DNA of 64,000 bases, taken from the IMG/VR virus record IMGVR_UViG_3300035696_001272; one strand, written 5' to 3'. This DNA comes from a virus. Lineage: Duplodnaviria > Heunggongvirae > Uroviricota > Caudoviricetes. Positions 2,292-63,459 of this stretch are shown piece by piece; the stretch's first letter is position 1, and every line of letters starts with the position of its first letter. The translations under genes were made by a program, and so were the position numbers. The notes under the pieces are model-generated. The model worked only from the letters and a program-made list of their open reading frames with translations, did no database searches and was not told the DNA's origin.

Positions 2292-2301
2292 CATAATTAA
2301 T

Positions 2302-2653
2302 GGGCACGCCCAGGTTTCGACGTGGTAAAGAATCAACGAAACGATACAGACAGAAGAGATTACACTTCTCAAAGTAATCAACGTTTGAATGCTAACGATA
2401 ATGCATTTGCTGAAGCAGCCTAAACAGCACTTCACGTTCTGAGATGAGATATTTTTGGTAATCAAAAGAACGCCAACCCACAAAAGATAGGTTTGAAATC
2501 GGTTACGGGTTTCAAATTGAAATTAACAGTAGATAGCCAGTTGGAGCGAGTATCTAACAGCGTTGTTAGTGACGCTAATACTAACTAAGTCTGTGAACGA
2601 ATTTCGCTGAGGGCATATCGCGGACAAGGGTTCGATTCCCTTCGTGTCCACCA
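2302..2653 (+). ncRNA. ssrA: tmRNA; tag reading frame 2391-2423 encodes ANDNAFAEAA*
   Basis: 5' GGGCACG pairs with 3' CGTGTCC-A-CCA with a G3:U70 Ala determinant; 5' GGTTTCGAC motif; T-arm AAGGG TTCGATT CCCTT; tag ORF GCT AAC GAT AAT GCA TTT GCT GAA GCA GCC TAA. Confidence 0.95.
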
Positions 2654-2662
2654 GAGGTAAGT

Positions 2663-2857
2663 ATGGATTTTCCAAATCTTAGTAGCATCGAAGCATTTTA
2701 TCAAGAGCAGCTGGATGCTGCCGGCCCTTTTGCAGATTGTGTTGAAGCAAAGGAAACTTGGTGGGAATACAATCAATTGATTGAACAGGAAGTGGCCGAT
2801 GAGCTTGCTGAAAAGAATATTCCAAAAGAAATTTACACTTTGAACGATTCGTGGTAA
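2663..2857 (+). CDS. Small acidic hypothetical protein
   Basis: ORF with GAGGT SD directly after the tmRNA. Confidence 0.6.
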   Translation: MDFPNLSSIEAFYQEQLDAAGPFADCVEAKETWWEYNQLIEQEVADELAEKNIPKEIYTLNDSW

Positions 2858-2859
2858 GT

Positions 2860-3348
2860 ATGAAATGGCCTCTCCGAAATAAAGTGCCTGCCCTTCCACC
2901 TGTGGGAGGTGTGGGCGATTTTGGTTTTAGACGATCATTCTACCATCATCCGGGCGTGGATGTTTACTGTGGCTTTGGTCAAGAAGTCCAAGCCATTGAA
3001 GATGGAACAGTTATTCTTGTTGAGAATTTCACTGGACCGAATGCAAATCCCCCCAGTCCATGGTGGTTAGACACATGGTCAATCTTGGTGGAAGGTGCAT
3101 CGGGTGTTTTGGGCTATTGCGAAATCAAACCGCTTCCCCATATCAAAATTGGACAAACCGTCAAAGAGGGCGAGTTGATTGCCACTGTTATTCCTGTCCT
3201 CAAGAAGGACAAGGGTAACGGAACGACTATGCTGCATTTTGAACATTATGTTCCAGGAACTAAGAATCACGTTACTTGGGTCTTGGATACTATCAAACCA
3301 GAAGAGCTTTTGGACTCCAGAGTATTGCTGGAAAAATTAACCGACTAA
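2860..3348 (+). CDS. M23-family metallopeptidase domain protein
   Basis: HPGVD (HxxxD), AIEDGTV, MLHFE. Confidence 0.75.
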   Translation: MKWPLRNKVPALPPVGGVGDFGFRRSFYHHPGVDVYCGFGQEVQAIEDGTVILVENFTGPNANPPSPWWLDTWSILVEGASGVLGYCEIKPLPHIKIGQTVKEGELIATVIPVLKKDKGNGTTMLHFEHYVPGTKNHVTWVLDTIKPEELLDSRVLLEKLTD

Positions 3349-3369
3349 TAAAAGGATATATGAGTTGTC

Positions 3370-3963
3370 ATGAGTCTATAGAACCAATTGATTATCGATA
3401 TGAAGGGCACTCTACAAACCGAGTCCCAATCCGTGTATCAACACGGCGTCTCTGTCAAAGAGCACATTTTTGAATTGATTTCATTTTTAAAAACCGGCCA
3501 GATTAGTGAAGGTTGGCGATTACCTACCTGGATGTATGATTACCGAGCACAATTATTGTCCTCGCTTCTTTCAGAAGATATCATTGAAGAGTACACTATC
3601 TTCCATGATTGCGGTAAACCATACTGCTTGACCATTGATGAAAAGGGCAAGCGACACTTTCCAGATCATGCCGAAGTTTCTTATCGTATCTGGCAGACTG
3701 TCAGTTCCAATCAAACAGTCGCCAATCTCATTCGTATGGATATGAAAATTCATACCATGAAAGCGGCTGATATTGATGAATTCATTCAGCATCCCGAGGC
3801 CACAACGTTGTTGTTGGCGGGATTAGCTGAAATTCATAGCAACGCCAAGATGTTTGGCGGCATTGAATCTGAGTCCTTTAAGATCAAGTGGAGTCAAATT
3901 AACAAACGTGGCAAAGCGATTTGTCAGAAACTATTTGGAGATAATCATGTGTCTATAGATTAA
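3370..3963 (+). CDS. HD-domain phosphohydrolase (similar to HD domains of tRNA nucleotidyltransferases); proposed ATG 3370 start with in-frame TAG at codon 4
   Basis: HGVSV...IFHDCGKP...RHFPDHAEVS; ATG AGT CTA TAG AAC CAA in frame with ORF 3388..3963; alternative starts TTG 3388 or ATG 3400. Confidence 0.75.
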
Positions 3964-4294
3964 AGAAGGCGACAAGCTATATGTTATTACTCGTAGGGAT
4001 TTGGAACCGGGTTACCAAGCCGTGCAAAGCATGCATGCTTTGAGACAGTTTACGGCTGATCATCCCGAGATTGATAGGCAATGGTTTGAGCAATCTAATT
4101 ACTTAGGTTTGCTCTCAGTCGCAGATGAAAAAGAGTTGACAGATTTGATTGAACAGGCAACGTATCATAACATTCCGTTCTCTGTTTTTAGAGAGCCTGA
4201 TGTTGACAACCAGATCACAGCAATTGCTTTGGCACCTGGTACAAAATCAAAGAAGTTGTGCAGTCGATTGCCTTTGGCATTAAGAGGAAAGTAA
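3947..4294 (+). CDS. Peptidyl-tRNA hydrolase 2 (PTH2/PTRHD1)-like protein with in-frame TAG at codon 4
   Basis: KLYVITRRDLEPGYQAVQSMHA...SVADEKEL...FREPD...ITAIALAP; GGAG SD 6 nt before ATG TGT CTA TAG ATT AAA; the conserved first strand lies upstream of the ORF-track TTG 4001. Confidence 0.75.
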
Positions 4295-4295
4295 A

Positions 4296-4565
4296 ATGAA
4301 GTGGACTGATAAAGAAGATGGGCCCGAATGTTTTTGTGGTATGCCAACCTTCGTGATTGTGGATGAAAGTGGCACTGCCGGTTTGATCTGCATTCTTCAT
4401 GAAGGAGCTAATGGAGCTTTATTTCCATTACCAAATGAAAGGCCCGAAACTTGGCCTAACCTTTCCATTGACGACTTGGATGCATTAATGCTTAAGGGTC
4501 AAGATGAGCATGATGTTCGGGAAGCGGAAAAGGAACATGAGAAAAACAAGCTTAGCCTCTCTTAA
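4296..4565 (+). CDS. Hypothetical protein
   Basis: ORF track; translationally coupled spacing. Confidence 0.6.
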   Translation: MKWTDKEDGPECFCGMPTFVIVDESGTAGLICILHEGANGALFPLPNERPETWPNLSIDDLDALMLKGQDEHDVREAEKEHEKNKLSLS

Positions 4566-4875
4566 AGAGCGGTTGACTGGTTGGTTACCGTGGGATAAAG
4601 CCATGTATGAAGTAGGCGCTTGCTTGGGATTTTGGCCCGAATTTGGAGCGCCACCTTCTGTGGATGATTCTAATGATCCATGGAATGGAGTCAAAGATGT
4701 CATCTACACCACTAAGCATGAGCCACTAGGAGCTATACTAGAATGGTTCTTAATAGATTTAGTAGAAGTAGGGTGCATTGAAGACAAAGCAGTGGATGAA
4801 GACGGAGTGCCCACTTCTTATTATAGATGGAATCCAAATTATAAAGGGGAAGCGGATATCATTACTATGCTATGA
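4537..4875 (+). CDS. Hypothetical protein
   Basis: AGGA SD before ATG 4537, within ORF 4504..4875. Confidence 0.6.
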   Translation: MRKTSLASLKERLTGWLPWDKAMYEVGACLGFWPEFGAPPSVDDSNDPWNGVKDVIYTTKHEPLGAILEWFLIDLVEVGCIEDKAVDEDGVPTSYYRWNPNYKGEADIITML

Positions 4876-5066
4876 TAGTATGCCTCCATAGCTCAAAGGA
4901 AGAGCAGCCGTCTCTAAAACGGTGGATGCGATGTCAGAATTCGCTGGGGGCGCAAGAGGTTATTATGGTTATCGTTTCATGCTTACTAATATCTATAGTT
5001 GCTGGTACATTTTTAGGAATCCTAATGCATATTTGGAATGATTGGGTTGAACGTAATAAAAAGTAA
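4872..5066 (+). CDS. Small membrane protein
   Basis: Hydrophobic stretch VIMVIVSCLLISIVAGTFLGILMHIW. Confidence 0.5.
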   Translation: MIVCLHSSKEEQPSLKRWMRCQNSLGAQEVIMVIVSCLLISIVAGTFLGILMHIWNDWVERNKK

Positions 5067-5073
5067 GTCGTAT

Positions 5074-5146
5074 GGGCTGTTAGCTCAGTTGGTAGAGCGG
5101 ATACCTCTAAATTATCTGGTCACGGGTTCGACTCCCGTACAGCCCT
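5074..5146 (+). tRNA. Amber suppressor tRNA, anticodon CUA (no encoded CCA)
   Basis: GGGCTGT/ACAGCCC acceptor, GCTC/GAGC D-stem, GATAC CT-CTA-AA TTATC anticodon arm (CTA at 5107-5109), ACGGG TTCGACT CCCGT T-arm, U73 followed by CAA. Confidence 0.9.
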
Positions 5147-5157
5147 CAAGGAGAATC

Positions 5158-5370
5158 ATGAAAAGTCATACTTGTTCTGCCTGGAAAAAAGATGAACATG
5201 CAGATTGCAATACCAAGTGTCCAGCTTGTCGTGCTCAAGACAATATTGAATGCACCTGTCCAGATTGGTGGTTTCCACAAGACCGTCGAGAACAATTGAG
5301 AAAATTACCTCATGATTACGGTAGGATACTTCAACATCACGCGTCCTGTGCCAAAAGAAATCACGAATAA
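5158..5370 (+). CDS. Small Cys/His-rich hypothetical protein
   Basis: AGGAG SD before ATG 5158; the ORF-track extension to 5038 runs through the tRNA. Confidence 0.55.
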   Translation: MKSHTCSAWKKDEHADCNTKCPACRAQDNIECTCPDWWFPQDRREQLRKLPHDYGRILQHHASCAKRNHE

Positions 5371-5388
5371 AATGATATATAATTTGAC

Positions 5389-5571
5389 ATGCAAAAATTC
5401 ATGACTAAATTAGAGATGCAGATTCGTGTGAAAGATCTTCGTGAAGAATTAGAAGCTAGGACCAAAACTGGCATCGTCAAAATGGCCGCTGAAGATGGCA
5501 CACCTGTACCAACTGAAACTCTTCAAAACGAGATGTTTAACCTTATTTATCGATTGAGCAAATTTGAGTGA
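5389..5571 (+). CDS. Hypothetical protein
   Basis: ORF; TGATATAT 8 nt upstream. Confidence 0.6.
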   Translation: MQKFMTKLEMQIRVKDLREELEARTKTGIVKMAAEDGTPVPTETLQNEMFNLIYRLSKFE

Positions 5572-6973: not shown

Positions 6974-7404
6974 TGAAATGTCCTACGTGTTTTTCCATTA
7001 TGAAATGTATTAGTGAGATTCATGCCCTCCCACACCAACCTGGCAGAGAGAGAATGGATTTGCACTGTTACAATCGAGGAGATCCGCGAGAACCCAATAG
7101 ATGTCGTGCAAGATGCCATATGGGCGTAATCACCGAGGACCCCAAAGAATGGGTCTGTCATGAATATAGTTTTTCCTTCAAACATAAAGAAAAACACTAT
7201 ATTCTACGAAGCTACGATTACCTAGTAGATCCATACCATCAAGGTAGGCCATATGAAGCCAAAACGATTTTAGAAGCTTGGGATTTTCAGCCAGCAGGCA
7301 TTATTGAATTACCATATTTCATTCCAATCTCTACTAGTGATGATATGCATGAAAGAGCTTGGGATCTTTTTCATCGTTTGATAAATCTGAAAGTTTATGC
7401 TTAA
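6973..7404 (+). CDS. Hypothetical protein with N-terminal CPTC
   Basis: ORF; TAATG coupling. Confidence 0.6.
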   Translation: MKCPTCFSIMKCISEIHALPHQPGRERMDLHCYNRGDPREPNRCRARCHMGVITEDPKEWVCHEYSFSFKHKEKHYILRSYDYLVDPYHQGRPYEAKTILEAWDFQPAGIIELPYFIPISTSDDMHERAWDLFHRLINLKVYA

Positions 7405-7682
7405 TGAAATTCAAAGTTCTATTCAGTTTGAATGCAAATAGGCAAACTCCTATCATGTCCTACTATCGTCCAGATTGGGTATCAGATAGCAAGCCAGATT
7501 ATAATTGTGCTCAGATTCTGATTGACGTGCCAATACTTAACCCAGGAGAAAAATGCACGGGTATATTAGAACCATTGGCTATAGATTTTTGGAATAATGT
7601 TGCCATTAATGACGTATTAAAGTGTATGGAAGGGCCAAAACAAGTGGGTGAAGCCATTGTTTTGGAAATCATGTCCCCGTAG
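7404..7682 (+). CDS. Stand-alone EF-Tu domain-3-like beta-barrel protein
   Basis: KFKV...RQTP...YRP...LNPGE...EGPKQVGEAIVLEI vs EF-Tu KF...RHTP...YRP...VMPGD...EGGRTVGAGVV; TAG stop overlaps the tRNA-Arg 5' end. Confidence 0.6.
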   Translation: MKFKVLFSLNANRQTPIMSYYRPDWVSDSKPDYNCAQILIDVPILNPGEKCTGILEPLAIDFWNNVAINDVLKCMEGPKQVGEAIVLEIMSP

Positions 7683-7748
7683 CCTAAAGGATAGGCAACA
7701 GTTTCCTAAACTGTTTTTATGTTGGTTCGAGTCCAATCGGGGATACCA
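7673..7748 (+). tRNA. tRNA-Arg(CCU)
   Basis: GTCCCCG/CGGGGAT-A-CCA; ACAGT TT-CCT-AA ACTGT; GTTGG TTCGAGT CCAAT. Confidence 0.92.
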
Positions 7749-15664: not shown

Positions 15665-16255
15665 ATGAGTAAGACAAATGAACACGAACATGGTCCACTA
15701 GTCGCCCCACTTTTGAGAGGTTATGCTGATAGTTATGTTAAGATGTCCAAATTTCGATCAGCCTTTCTGTCAGAAGACGTTACCGACAAAGTGGCCGCTG
15801 AACTATCAGCCATGATGTTGTATTTCGATCATCAAGATCACGAAGAGCCAATTCAATTGTATCTTCATTCCAATGGTGGTGCCATCAGTGGCATGCTTAA
15901 GATTTATGACGTTATGCAAATGATTCATGCGCCAGTTCATACCATATTATTGGGAAAGTGCTATTCAGCTGGGGCTGTTATTCTGTCCGCTGGCACTAAA
16001 GGTGAACGCTATGCTTTGAGAAGTTCTAATGTCATGATTCACGGCATTCAGTTTACTTTTCCAATTCCTGGCGAAGATATGGTCAATAGCAAGAACTATT
16101 TAGAGTTTGTAGATGACACTAACGATCTTCTTATGAAGATTTTGTCTAAACATACTGGTCAAACTCTGGAGAAAATTAAGGAAGACTGTGCTAGAGAGTA
16201 TTGGATGGATGCCAAGGCAGCCAAGGAGTACGGCATTATCGACCATATTATTTGA
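15665..16255 (+). CDS. clpP: ClpP protease proteolytic subunit
   Basis: HSNGG, CYSAG (Ser), MIHG (His), REYWMDA (Asp->Glu), EYGIID. Confidence 0.88.
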   Translation: MSKTNEHEHGPLVAPLLRGYADSYVKMSKFRSAFLSEDVTDKVAAELSAMMLYFDHQDHEEPIQLYLHSNGGAISGMLKIYDVMQMIHAPVHTILLGKCYSAGAVILSAGTKGERYALRSSNVMIHGIQFTFPIPGEDMVNSKNYLEFVDDTNDLLMKILSKHTGQTLEKIKEDCAREYWMDAKAAKEYGIIDHII

Positions 16256-16256
16256 G

Positions 16257-16697
16257 ATGGATAAGAAATTATTTGACTTGGTATATTGTGATTTTGACTG
16301 GAAAGAACATCACTTTCTAGAAGGTCCGATAGGTGCCACGTTAGAAGATTTTAAAGAACTCTGTGCCCGCCTTTTACCAAAGGCAGGTTATCGAGCCGCT
16401 CTTAAACATCTAGACCCAAGGAAGAAGGGCTGGATTGGATGGAGTGAAGTTGTGGAGTCGTTGATAGCCCTGCTTTCAGAGCAGGGTTATCAACGTGTTT
16501 CTTTGGAAACCAACCAAATAGAAGGCGGCATAATAATTGGAATAGACTCTGATGATGGTCTTGTAGACGAAAGATTGGGGTTTGCCGGACCTTTGATTGC
16601 TGATTATAATCGTAAATTAGAAAAGAAATTGCAGGAAGACCGAAAATTCAAAAAGTTTCATTCTCTTAGAAAAAAAGCAGTTCAAATCATCAAGTAG
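16257..16697 (+). CDS. Hypothetical protein; TAG stop followed by TAA TAA
   Basis: ATG 16257 within ORF 16188..16697. Confidence 0.6.
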   Translation: MDKKLFDLVYCDFDWKEHHFLEGPIGATLEDFKELCARLLPKAGYRAALKHLDPRKKGWIGWSEVVESLIALLSEQGYQRVSLETNQIEGGIIIGIDSDDGLVDERLGFAGPLIADYNRKLEKKLQEDRKFKKFHSLRKKAVQIIK

Positions 16698-49160: not shown

Positions 49161-50365
49161 TGGGAGATAAAATGTCAGATGATAAGAAAAAGAAAAGCGA
49201 CACGCTAACGAGTTTTTTTAAGAGTTTTGCAGAAGCCGACGAATTACTAGACTTCAGAATGGCCCATGAAACAGTTGGTCAAAAGTTACCAGTTACATCC
49301 ACGGGTTCTCTCGCATTAGATGATGCACTCTCTTCTGGCGGAATCCCTAAAGGCAGACTAATTCAATATTACGGTCCTGCCGGTTCTGGCAAAACCATGA
49401 TGGCCATGTTAGCCATCAAAGAAGCTCAGATGGCAGACCCTTCTGCCCAGCAAATGTTTATTGACGCAGAAGGAACCTTCGATCCAAATTGGGCAGAGAC
49501 GTTAGGATTGGATACATCACGCATTATCGTGGTGGACCAAGAGACGGCTGTTATTGGACGCAAGTGCTTTGAAATGATCCTTGGCGTTCCCAAGGAAGAC
49601 AAGAAGACTCACGAATTGGTAGGCAAGCAAAAAGACGGTTTGTTAGACCTAATCATGGCTGGCGAGTTGAACATCAATATGGTCGTTCTAGACTCGTTAG
49701 GTGCCATCATGCCACCAGGCGAAGATATCTCTAGAGTTGGCAAGATGAACATGTCTCTGTTGGCCAGATTCTTGACCACCACCTTCCGTAAGCTGTCATT
49801 AGACGCTAACAAAGCGAAGGTACCATTCATCTTCATCAACCACAAGAAAGATGGAATGGATCCATATGGTGCTGACCATACATTCTCTGGCGGTAACAGC
49901 TACTCTCACTTTTTGTCTGTCAACGTTTACTTCGAGGCAGCCACAGCGAAGGATAAGCTCATTCTAGACGAAAAAGAAAATAGAATTGGTGCCACCATTC
50001 GCGCTGCTATCGAAAAATCAAAGTTCGGACCTTGGCCACGCAAGTGTGAATTTAAGGTGAACTTTGGAATCGGTGTTATAGACAGGCACGAGGAAATCGC
50101 ACAGCTCGCCAAAGACTATGGCGTCATTCAAATGACCTCCACAGTTTCTCATGAATATGGCGACAAAAAGTGGGTTGGATTTCCAAAATTGTGTGAAGCA
50201 ATTAAAGATGATCCAGCATTAGCTAATGAGTTAACTATAAAGATTGGTGAAGCTCGTGATGCTAAGATGGAAGCAGCAAGAAAAGAACAAGAAGCTAAAA
50301 AGAATGGCGTAACTGTTTCTGATCAAGCTGTTGAAGAAGCCAAAAAGAGCAAGAAGGGTAAGTAA
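49157..50365 (+). CDS. recA: RecA/UvsX-like recombinase
   Basis: STGSLALDDALSSGGIPKGR, YGPAGSGKT, FIDAEG, VVLDSLGA, IFINH, GG....HF. Confidence 0.92.
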   Translation: MMGDKMSDDKKKKSDTLTSFFKSFAEADELLDFRMAHETVGQKLPVTSTGSLALDDALSSGGIPKGRLIQYYGPAGSGKTMMAMLAIKEAQMADPSAQQMFIDAEGTFDPNWAETLGLDTSRIIVVDQETAVIGRKCFEMILGVPKEDKKTHELVGKQKDGLLDLIMAGELNINMVVLDSLGAIMPPGEDISRVGKMNMSLLARFLTTTFRKLSLDANKAKVPFIFINHKKDGMDPYGADHTFSGGNSYSHFLSVNVYFEAATAKDKLILDEKENRIGATIRAAIEKSKFGPWPRKCEFKVNFGIGVIDRHEEIAQLAKDYGVIQMTSTVSHEYGDKKWVGFPKLCEAIKDDPALANELTIKIGEARDAKMEAARKEQEAKKNGVTVSDQAVEEAKKSKKGK

Positions 50366-62685: not shown

Positions 62686-63459
62686 ATGAAACTCCGAGAA
62701 CTACTTCAAGAAATGAAGACAGTACAAGAAGAAATAGGAGCCTCACCAGCTTTTATTTGCGGAGGTACGCCCAGAGATAAGTTTATGGGCCATTTGGAAA
62801 ATATCGCTGATTTAGATATTACAACGGGTGATAAAACAGTTGATTATCTTTCGCAAGAGTTTTATATCAAGTTTAGAAAACGTTACAACGTTACCAGAAA
62901 AGCTATGGAAGATGGTCATAGCACCATCTTTGTAGGTAAGTTAAAAGTAGACTTCTCATCTAATTTTATGGTTCCTAACATAGATCACATCTTAAATCAG
63001 ATGGGAATTAGAGAGCCCAGCGATATGCAGCGCGAAATGTTCAGTCGCGATTTTACATGCAATTCGCTTTTGTTGACTTTGGATTTAAAGAAAATCTTGG
63101 ATCCAACTAAGCATGGACTTCAAGATATCAAGGACCGTAAAATCAAGACATGCTTATCTCCAGAGATAACTTTAACCGCTAATAGAAACAGGGTAGTTAG
63201 GGCTATTTATCTGGCCTGTAAGCTAGATTTCAGTATCGATCATGCTATTATTGATTATGTAAGTAAGAACCCACAAACCGTTAAGATATCAACTGAAAAG
63301 TCTCTGACAGAGAAGTTAAATGATGCTTTTTCACGAGATGCCGATAAGGCCTCTTATCTTATCAGTAAAATGAATTTGTGGAGTTATATTCCCGTTACTG
63401 AAACTATGTATCCTTACTATATAAAGCAGACTCAAGGAATTACCAATGTCCAGAAATAA
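62686..63459 (+). CDS. Class II tRNA nucleotidyltransferase (CCA/poly(A) polymerase family)
   Basis: ICGGTPRD, ADLDIT (DxD), SRDFTCNSL, LDP..HG..DI....I, RVVRAI. Confidence 0.85.
   Translation: MKLRELLQEMKTVQEEIGASPAFICGGTPRDKFMGHLENIADLDITTGDKTVDYLSQEFYIKFRKRYNVTRKAMEDGHSTIFVGKLKVDFSSNFMVPNIDHILNQMGIREPSDMQREMFSRDFTCNSLLLTLDLKKILDPTKHGLQDIKDRKIKTCLSPEITLTANRNRVVRAIYLACKLDFSIDHAIIDYVSKNPQTVKISTEKSLTEKLNDAFSRDADKASYLISKMNLWSYIPVTETMYPYYIKQTQGITNVQK

Follow-up and report, generated by a model that had tools for sequence, protein, structure and literature searches.

A 64,000-nucleotide stretch of caudoviricete DNA (hereafter the window; bases 69,698–133,697 of the 251,895-bp IMG/VR virus record IMGVR_UViG_3300035696_001272) contains a compact locus in which a gene for an HD-domain protein (3370–3963) and a peptidyl-tRNA-hydrolase-like gene of the PTH2 fold (3947–4294) are followed by two tRNA genes with the amber-reading anticodon CUA, here called type A (4882–4952) and type B (5074–5146), all on the plus strand. 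Both protein genes carry an in-frame TAG within their first codons, and we argue below that the tRNAs are probably working suppressors of which these two leader UAGs are the conserved targets. The gene order, namely threonine tRNAs, transfer-messenger RNA (tmRNA), HD, PTH2, tRNA(CUA) and tRNA-Arg(CCU), is identical in 9 of 9 close relatives, whose loci were fetched with the HD protein as probe (60–78% identity); a broader set of 31 PTH2 loci was found with the PTH2 alignment, at identities down to 48%. The record itself (G000) is linear, 59% complete by CheckV estimate and 40.9% G+C. Because related records of 340–480 kb hold 55–58 tRNA matches apiece together with a tmRNA and many translation genes, we take the window phage to be a huge soil phage, of which the 252 kb are a fragment. 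The locus (2300–5400) is present in two peat-metagenome DNA runs only, and no RNA run is listed with it; searching a phage collection with the locus returned scattered tRNA matches and no close record, and scanning bacterial genomes with the PTH2 alignment returned no relatives.

The PTH2 gene begins with GGAG, 6 nt and then ATG TGT CTA TAG ATT AAA (3947–3964), placing the TAG at codon 4 (3956–3958) and the start of the domain at ATT 3959. Both the Pfam domain (PF01981; 31.5 bits against a cut-off of 23, with residues 10–101 aligned to profile positions 2–103) and the first modelled β-strand start immediately behind the TAG: modelled with AlphaFold, the post-TAG protein has a predicted local distance difference test score of 96.3 with strand 1 at residues 6–12, and Foldseek matches it to the full length of the solved Pth2 structures 2zv3, 1q7s, 1wn2, 3erj and 1xty (template modelling score 0.72–0.80). 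The NCBIfam PTH2 equivalog cut-off is missed (24.5 against 126), and by these profile scores the phage protein is a divergent member of the family. The first canonical start past the TAG, TTG 4001, would remove strand 1 and is unconserved. Across the 31 PTH2 loci, 24 have an ATG, one to three sense codons and a TAG immediately ahead of the conserved motif IKEGDKLY. The leader sense codons differ by lineage (CTA, CTT, TTA, TCG, GCG, ACG and others) and a Shine–Dalgarno sequence precedes the ATG; the codon after the TAG is ATT, GTT, ATC or ATA, and no canonical start is conserved downstream. In one locus (L004) the PTH2 ATG lies beyond the end of the HD gene, and an overlap of the two genes therefore does not account for retention of the TAG. 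A separate observation concerns L059, in which ATG AAT GAG TAG stands in frame one codon ahead of the PTH2 ATG.

The HD gene has the same arrangement, with ATG 3370, a TAG at codon 4 (3379–3381) and an internal ATG at 3400. In each of the 16 HD-bearing loci an ATG is followed by two to five codons and an in-frame TAG, and between the TAG and the internal ATG the sequence L-I-x-D is conserved as protein through synonymous codons. The profile of the family to which the gene belongs, phrog_14850, aligns from residue 3 past the TAG, upstream of the internal ATG. Counted from the TAG, that ATG comes 6–7 codons later in most HD-bearing loci and 13 codons later in L066. The public record starts the gene there, and the presence of an internal ATG that gene callers use makes the HD case weaker than the PTH2 case. 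As an aside, the HD protein (3382–3960) matches phrog_14850, a family of unknown function, only at profile positions 86–268 of 270, which implies about 85 additional N-terminal residues in the homologues of other phages. A promoter reading of this region, built on the palindrome TCTATAGA and on a resemblance between the HD leader and T7/SP6-type promoters, was set aside because the motif does not recur elsewhere and distant relatives do not retain it.

Turning to the tRNAs, type B is a canonical class I cloverleaf that ARAGORN calls over 5074–5147 with anticodon CTA and that Rfam RF00005 scores at 63.6 bits (cut-off 29). Its discriminator U is followed by CAA (T then CAA in the DNA), in agreement with an earlier note, made from the letters of this DNA, that had described a canonical tRNA(CUA) with no encoded CCA. 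Type A, which Rfam scores at 45.3 bits and ARAGORN misses, has a discriminator G, then CAA; it shares the anticodon loop CUCUAAA with type B and is otherwise unrelated to it. A type-B orthologue stands at the corresponding place in 9 of 9 close relatives, and type A is also present in 7 of 10 loci. The minimum-energy fold of type A is a cloverleaf with, in the window genome, an atypical T arm (a 4-bp stem and the loop UGUCAGAAU); among relatives there are type-A versions whose T loop is normal and whose CCA is encoded. When 25 distinct tRNA(CUA) genes from related phages were aligned, U33-C34-U35-A36-A37 proved invariant in all 25 and compensatory changes were seen at 17 of 19 stem pairs. Invariance of these loop bases while the stem pairs covary argues strongly that a functional tRNA with a CUA anticodon is under selection; as far as sequence comparison can tell, the genes are kept as tRNAs of the amber-suppressor type (CUA, 7-nt loop, U33, purine 37).

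In the ARAGORN set, CCA is encoded by 14 of the 14 other tRNAs in the window phage's record and by 56 of the 57 tRNAs in its 480-kb relative G001; type B alone lacks it in these two records, and it is not encoded in 13 of 20 distinct type-B-like genes. Type B would therefore require 3′ trimming and CCA addition before it could act, and a class II nucleotidyltransferase with the head domain of the CCA-adding enzyme family (62686–63459, plus strand; Pfam PolyA_pol, 46.2 bits) is a candidate for maturing the CCA-less suppressor. As for the amino acid inserted, the discriminator base among tRNA(CUA) genes is A, G, U or C; under the identity rules of Escherichia coli, CUA with A73 leans towards Lys or Gln and CUA with G73 towards Gln. 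No Glu/Gln-tRNA synthetase gene was found in four records (G000–G003). An origin from tRNA-Lys(CUU), as the earlier note had suggested, is possible from the loop sequence, but similarity of the tRNA bodies gives no single isotype: identity to the phages' own tRNAs is 0.62–0.77 for Arg, Ile, Val, Lys, Met and others. In PTH2 homologues without the TAG, the residue at that position is T, A or R and lies in an unconserved N-terminal tail, so the site sets no constraint on the amino acid.

ARAGORN labels type B 'Pyl', which raises the reading that tRNA(CUA) carries pyrrolysine or another non-canonical amino acid. Apart from the CUA anticodon itself, the genes speak against this. tRNA-Pyl is atypical, with a short D loop lacking G18 G19, a 3-nt variable loop, a long anticodon stem and no T54-Ψ55-C56, whereas the tRNA(CUA)s have G18 G19, a T54-T55-C56 loop, a 5-nt variable loop, and 7-bp and 5-bp stems (the anticodon stem being 5 bp), as in an ordinary elongator; the type-A copy of the window is without the TTC but keeps the other elongator features. 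The variable residues T, A or R in the TAG-less homologues likewise do not point to a special amino acid. The label reflects the anticodon only, and we give the pyrrolysine reading practically no weight.

Several further small genes surround the suppressors. The two tRNA(CUA) genes flank a 33-aa hydrophobic open reading frame (ORF; 4966–5066), and just past the second of them comes a Cys-rich ORF of 70 aa (5158–5370); their Shine–Dalgarno sequences (GAGG and AAGGAG) are inside the 3′ trailer of the preceding tRNA, and tRNA 3′ processing and translation of the ORFs may therefore interfere mutually. Downstream of PTH2 in two more distant relatives, at the place that corresponds to tRNA(CUA), are tRNAs with the loop CUUUAAA and the anticodon UUA, of ochre type (L059:5809–5884 and L061:5582–5654), and the complete 169-kb genome G004 has an odd 95-nt 'tta' tRNA-like gene in the same direction from its PTH2 (L053:6731–6825). 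The 480-kb relative has another odd tRNA-like gene (G001 50073–50149, L012), whose acceptor stem is 8 bp and T stem 4 bp long; it reads 'tta' where the anticodon belongs, and its CCA is encoded.

We then considered how a phage with amber suppressors uses TAG, taking a mechanical, length-greedy ORF set that covers 95% of the record. The 94 ORFs of the window end in TAA 58 times, TGA 33 times and TAG 3 times, the last at 228–230 (a back-up TGA follows 6 codons on), at 7680–7682, the end of ORF 7359–7682 (next in-frame stop 3 codons on), and at 16695–16697, the end of ORF 16188–16697 (TAA TAA directly after), all on the plus strand; these are the same three that had been read from the sequence earlier. 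Over the whole record the counts are TAA 178–180, TGA 109–116 and TAG 10. Of the ten ORFs with a TAG stop, seven are short and lie on the minus strand of a mostly plus-strand genome, and on the plus strand 3 of 260 ORFs over the 251,895 bp stop at TAG, to which ORF 16188–16697 adds one. In all, TAG closes roughly 1–3% of genes. The TAG trinucleotide occurs at 1.01 times its expected frequency in the record, without general avoidance; it makes up 27% of stop-type trinucleotides genome-wide and 22% of the in-frame stops that bound ORFs upstream, the latter against its share at gene ends giving Fisher p = 1.6e-12. A side observation on 7680–7682 is that this stop sits within the 5′ acceptor stem of tRNA-Arg(CCU) (7673–7748), so that cleavage by ribonuclease P would strip the stop codon from ORF 7359–7682.

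The earlier note had also held that TAG is not reassigned across the genome, and coding density bears this out: code 11 gives a coverage of 95.2%, a sense reading of TAG one of 94.5%, and three large frames are bridged by TAG, against 17 by TGA and 29 by TAA, none of them a large gene split by TAG. The genome therefore keeps the standard code, although hardly any TAG is left at its gene ends. A search for other conserved in-frame TAGs found none in the 252 kb of G000 or the 420-kb core of G001. In that search, TAGs with open flanks were compared between the two records by tblastn; the unrestricted sweep returned hundreds of matches in which conserved DNA had been aligned in non-coding frames, and restriction to annotated frames left nothing convincing. 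An apparent TAG-to-Leu match at G001 232118 turned out to be aligned off frame. Leaders made up of an ATG, at most six codons and a TAG show no genome-wide enrichment over TAA or TGA controls, and the sequence ATG TAG ATG, which occurs twice in G000, is taken as chance.

The last 60 kb of G001 stand apart. Between 420,000 and 480,000 (L031–L033) G+C is 49–57%, there are many small genes and TAG makes up 14% of stops, whereas in the rest of the record G+C is 42% and TAG 2%. Recoding of this segment was considered and rejected: the gain in coverage with TAG as sense is matched by that with TGA as sense, and the test case turned out to be two ordinary genes parted by a TAG stop. IMG/VR classes the record as a provirus, so that the segment may derive from the host, from a different element or from chimeric joining.

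Leader and suppressor tend to occur together. A tRNA(CUA) is found in 20 of the 24 leader-TAG loci, within 5 kb in 19 and about 127 kb from the PTH2 gene in G006; conversely, five of six loci lacking the leader have no tRNA(CUA) (Fisher p = 0.005). PTH2 genes with a plain start (M-A-T/R-I-K; L051, L054, L055, L059 and L061) come without a tRNA(CUA), as does the whole genome G007, and the loci without leader and tRNA fall in two separate clades on the PTH2 tree, which is weakly resolved. This association, the retention of the leader TAGs in every close relative while the surrounding codons change, and the onset of the PTH2 fold right behind the TAG lend comparative support to the dedicated regulatory role that the earlier note had proposed for the suppressor on what it called two minigene-led genes.

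Stop usage and release factors follow a similar division. TAG accounts for 1.6–3.5% of gene stops in G000, 1.6–2.5% in the G001 core and 4.4–5.1% in G006, all with tRNA(CUA), and for 16.6–17.6% in G007 and 11.3–15.3% in G008, both without; since the three carrier and two non-carrier genomes also differ in G+C, the contrast is suggestive only. The large carriers G001, G002, G005 and G006 encode a full-length release factor 2 (RF2) with SPF and GGQ, that of G001 scoring 383.4 bits on TIGR00020 (cut-off 370), and the phage RF2 genes have no internal UGA. G007 and G008 (L147 and L146) have only PrfH-like GGQ proteins of about 200 aa and no full-length RF2. The two parts of a code-change kit are thus both represented, tRNA(CUA) in the window and RF2 in the relatives.

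Taken together, these patterns lead us to propose, with a probability of roughly 0.7, that the tRNA(CUA)s function as suppressors for the phage, with the two leader UAGs as their conserved targets, and that removal of TAG stops and an RF2 accommodate suppression that is global. Under this model both tRNAs would be produced as amber suppressors during infection and would act on UAGs 2–5 codons past the AUG of the adjacent PTH2-fold and HD genes, about 1 kb upstream of the tRNAs. Ribosomes would initiate at the AUG preceded by a Shine–Dalgarno sequence and reach the UAG immediately, there either to terminate, yielding no protein, or to insert an amino acid by means of tRNA(CUA) and continue. The output of HD and PTH2 would then track the amount of mature, charged suppressor relative to RF1, and the two proteins are probably produced only while the phage suppressor tRNAs work. 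Since suppression would be global, TAG would have been removed from nearly all phage gene ends, and the RF2 of the large relatives would serve UAA and UGA and leave UAG alone. Expression and charging of the tRNAs, the residue that they insert and what the gate is for are inferred. For the last, our guess is that the gate couples tRNA-recycling enzymes to read-through load, beside the phage tmRNA; alternatively, it may be a checkpoint on the phage tRNA supply. Our own reading is that this would be stable, minimal UAG recoding serving as a gene-specific gate, rather than a passing stage to full reassignment.

A more far-reaching version, which we hold only tentatively and think somewhat doubtful, is that UAG is a private regulatory codon kept by the whole huge-soil-phage clade, in a cell where UAG rarely or never acts as a stop. 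RF2 would there handle termination and tRNA(CUA) would read UAG, which would be used only at the starts of the PTH2-like and HD genes. The supply checkpoint on the two genes would then cover transcription, ribonuclease P cleavage, 3′ trimming with CCA addition on the single CCA-less suppressor, and charging, and UAG would set the dose of the tRNA-recycling enzymes by the load of read-through and ribosome rescue. If true, engineered amberless strains would have a parallel in nature in such a private codon.

A number of observations weigh against leader-directed suppression. The internal ATG of HD is conserved, and the protein could be made without read-through; the type-A copy of the window, with its non-canonical T arm, may be weak or inactive; and RF2 lies outside the 252-kb fragment, being known from relatives and not from the window genome itself. 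The association also has exceptions. Four loci have the leader but no tRNA(CUA) in the sequence examined (L053, from the complete G004, and L062, L064 and L065; the records of three of the four are incomplete or short), a class II tRNA(CUA) occurs in L058 without a leader TAG, and G008, which lacks a canonical tRNA(CUA), has one odd tRNA-like gene whose anticodon position reads CTA and whose T loop is not TTC. The co-occurrence counts are phylogenetically non-independent on a poorly resolved PTH2 tree, and the comparison of stop usage is confounded by G+C, which is 35–42% in carriers and 56–59% in non-carriers.

How else might the same features have come together? One possibility is that they mark a transitional state, in which TAG loss and suppressors are en route to full reassignment and the leader TAGs are merely the first to have drifted in, without function. 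TAG scarcity, tRNA(CUA) and RF2 are all present, as expected if, as one preprint proposes (10.1101/2021.08.26.457843), stops are depleted before a suppressor tRNA and then in-frame stops appear, and the earlier note had entertained such an early stage. Drift, however, would spread TAGs over many genes and not fix one at codons 3–6 of two, and no other conserved in-frame TAG was found in the 252 kb and 420 kb searched. The leader TAG is at the same place in the same two genes down to about 50% PTH2 identity, with flanking codons changing, and the same state recurs across phages whose PTH2 proteins are about 50–60% identical and whose G+C is 35–42%; nor is G+C low in the window phage (41%), and TGA is still 37% of its stops. 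We therefore consider a transitional state improbable. A reading to which we give only slightly more credence, though still unlikely, turns the suppressors outwards: they would read UAGs of the host or of rival elements, bringing about shut-off, an overload of rescue or neutralization of defence, with the leader TAGs a side effect or minor sensor. Genome-wide removal of TAG stops makes sense only with strong global suppression, and the phage would avoid TAG simply for self-protection; the tmRNA beside the cassette and the RF2 of relatives fit as well. What such a weapon leaves unexplained is the retention of TAG at the starts of PTH2 and HD in many lineages and the joint absence of leader and tRNA(CUA) elsewhere. 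The same unlikely activity against the host could, if real, coexist with gating of the two genes.

The leaders might instead need no suppression at all. Very short ORFs are known as regulators and as sites of peptidyl-tRNA drop-off, as in the bar minigenes of phage lambda, and ATG-xx-TAG could be an upstream ORF of 3–5 codons, with the main ORFs translated by re-initiation or from an AUU, GUU or AUC start and tRNA(CUA) unrelated; the HD internal ATG, so close past the TAG in most HD loci, would suit this. For PTH2 the codon past the TAG varies among ATT, GTT, ATC and ATA, and GTT is not known as a bacterial start; the Shine–Dalgarno spacing fits the upstream ATG and not the post-TAG codon. The mini-ORF is moreover invariably in frame with the main ORF and invariably ends in TAG, never TAA or TGA, and it co-occurs with tRNA(CUA), all of which makes independent upstream ORFs a distinctly remote prospect. 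By comparison, suppression directed at the two leader UAGs has precedents in part. Like the autoregulation of prfB (RF2) through an early in-frame UGA, it would make the output of a translation factor depend on termination against alternative decoding; here, though, read-through would be by a dedicated suppressor tRNA and not by +1 frameshifting, and the gated genes are PTH2-like and HD rather than a release factor. In phage T4, tRNAs without encoded CCA, among them the tRNA-Ser from which the amber suppressor psu1+ derives, need host 3′ trimming and CCA addition before a suppressor can act; amberless E. coli, with RF1 deleted, a 'fixed' RF2 and an amber suppressor, combines scarce TAG stops, RF2-only termination and a tRNA(CUA). 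The suppressors in question are laboratory mutants or constructs, whereas the set described here is natural and conserved.

Closer relatives of the system are the phages recoded to code 15 with suppressor tRNAs and RF2 (crAss-like, Lak, Agate and others; Ivanova 2014; 10.1101/2021.08.26.457843; PMC9523058), a form of recoding described in gut phages (10.1101/2021.08.26.457843; PMC13037316). They share with the present phages a phage tRNA(CUA), an RF2 (here in the large relatives) and early genes readable in the standard code, and an in-frame TAG has been proposed there as a post-transcriptional gate (10.1101/2021.08.26.457843). The differences are that just two genes carry an in-frame TAG here, at codons 3–6 and in non-structural, non-lysis genes; that coding density does not rise under code 15 and the state appears stable across a deep clade; and that these are soil phages of 41% G+C and not gut phages of low G+C. 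Borges et al. (10.1101/2021.08.26.457843) mention a single phage that uses the standard code and carries a suppressor tRNA, possibly a precursor state. In such standard-code phages with 'orphan' suppressors (the TGA suppressor of an Agate phage in Borges et al., and tRNA-TERM annotations) the matching stop is likewise scarce; here, by contrast, there are identifiable conserved target codons and two unrelated suppressor copies. Al-Shayeb et al. (PMC7162821) described RF1/RF2 and tmRNA in huge phages and reported no suppressor tRNAs, and our literature search found no paper on leader UAGs in PTH2 or HD genes.

Phage suppressors are usually explained by recoding of late genes, and in standard-code phages are seen as orphans or as a passing stage. 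If our model holds, the conserved and precise target codons would give such 'orphan' suppressor tRNAs a concrete function. The combination of near-absent TAG, RF2 and tRNA(CUA), in the usual view a step towards a new code, appears to persist over a deep clade, and tRNAs and leaders together may amount to a compact natural module for amber gating. For annotation, the consequence is that genes with leader TAGs are shortened or missed by gene callers.

The remaining features of the locus lie upstream. The phage tmRNA (2302–2653, plus strand; Rfam RF00023, 116.8 bits), with the tag ANDNAFAEAA, has the same position in 9 of 9 close relatives and is syntenic with the suppressor cassette. A scan for promoters and terminators gave counts at the level of shuffled sequence. 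A third tRNA-Thr, with anticodon UGU, lies at 787–857 (Rfam 44 bits; missed by ARAGORN), and just upstream of it is a good σ70-like promoter, TTGACA-16-TATATT, at 745–772.

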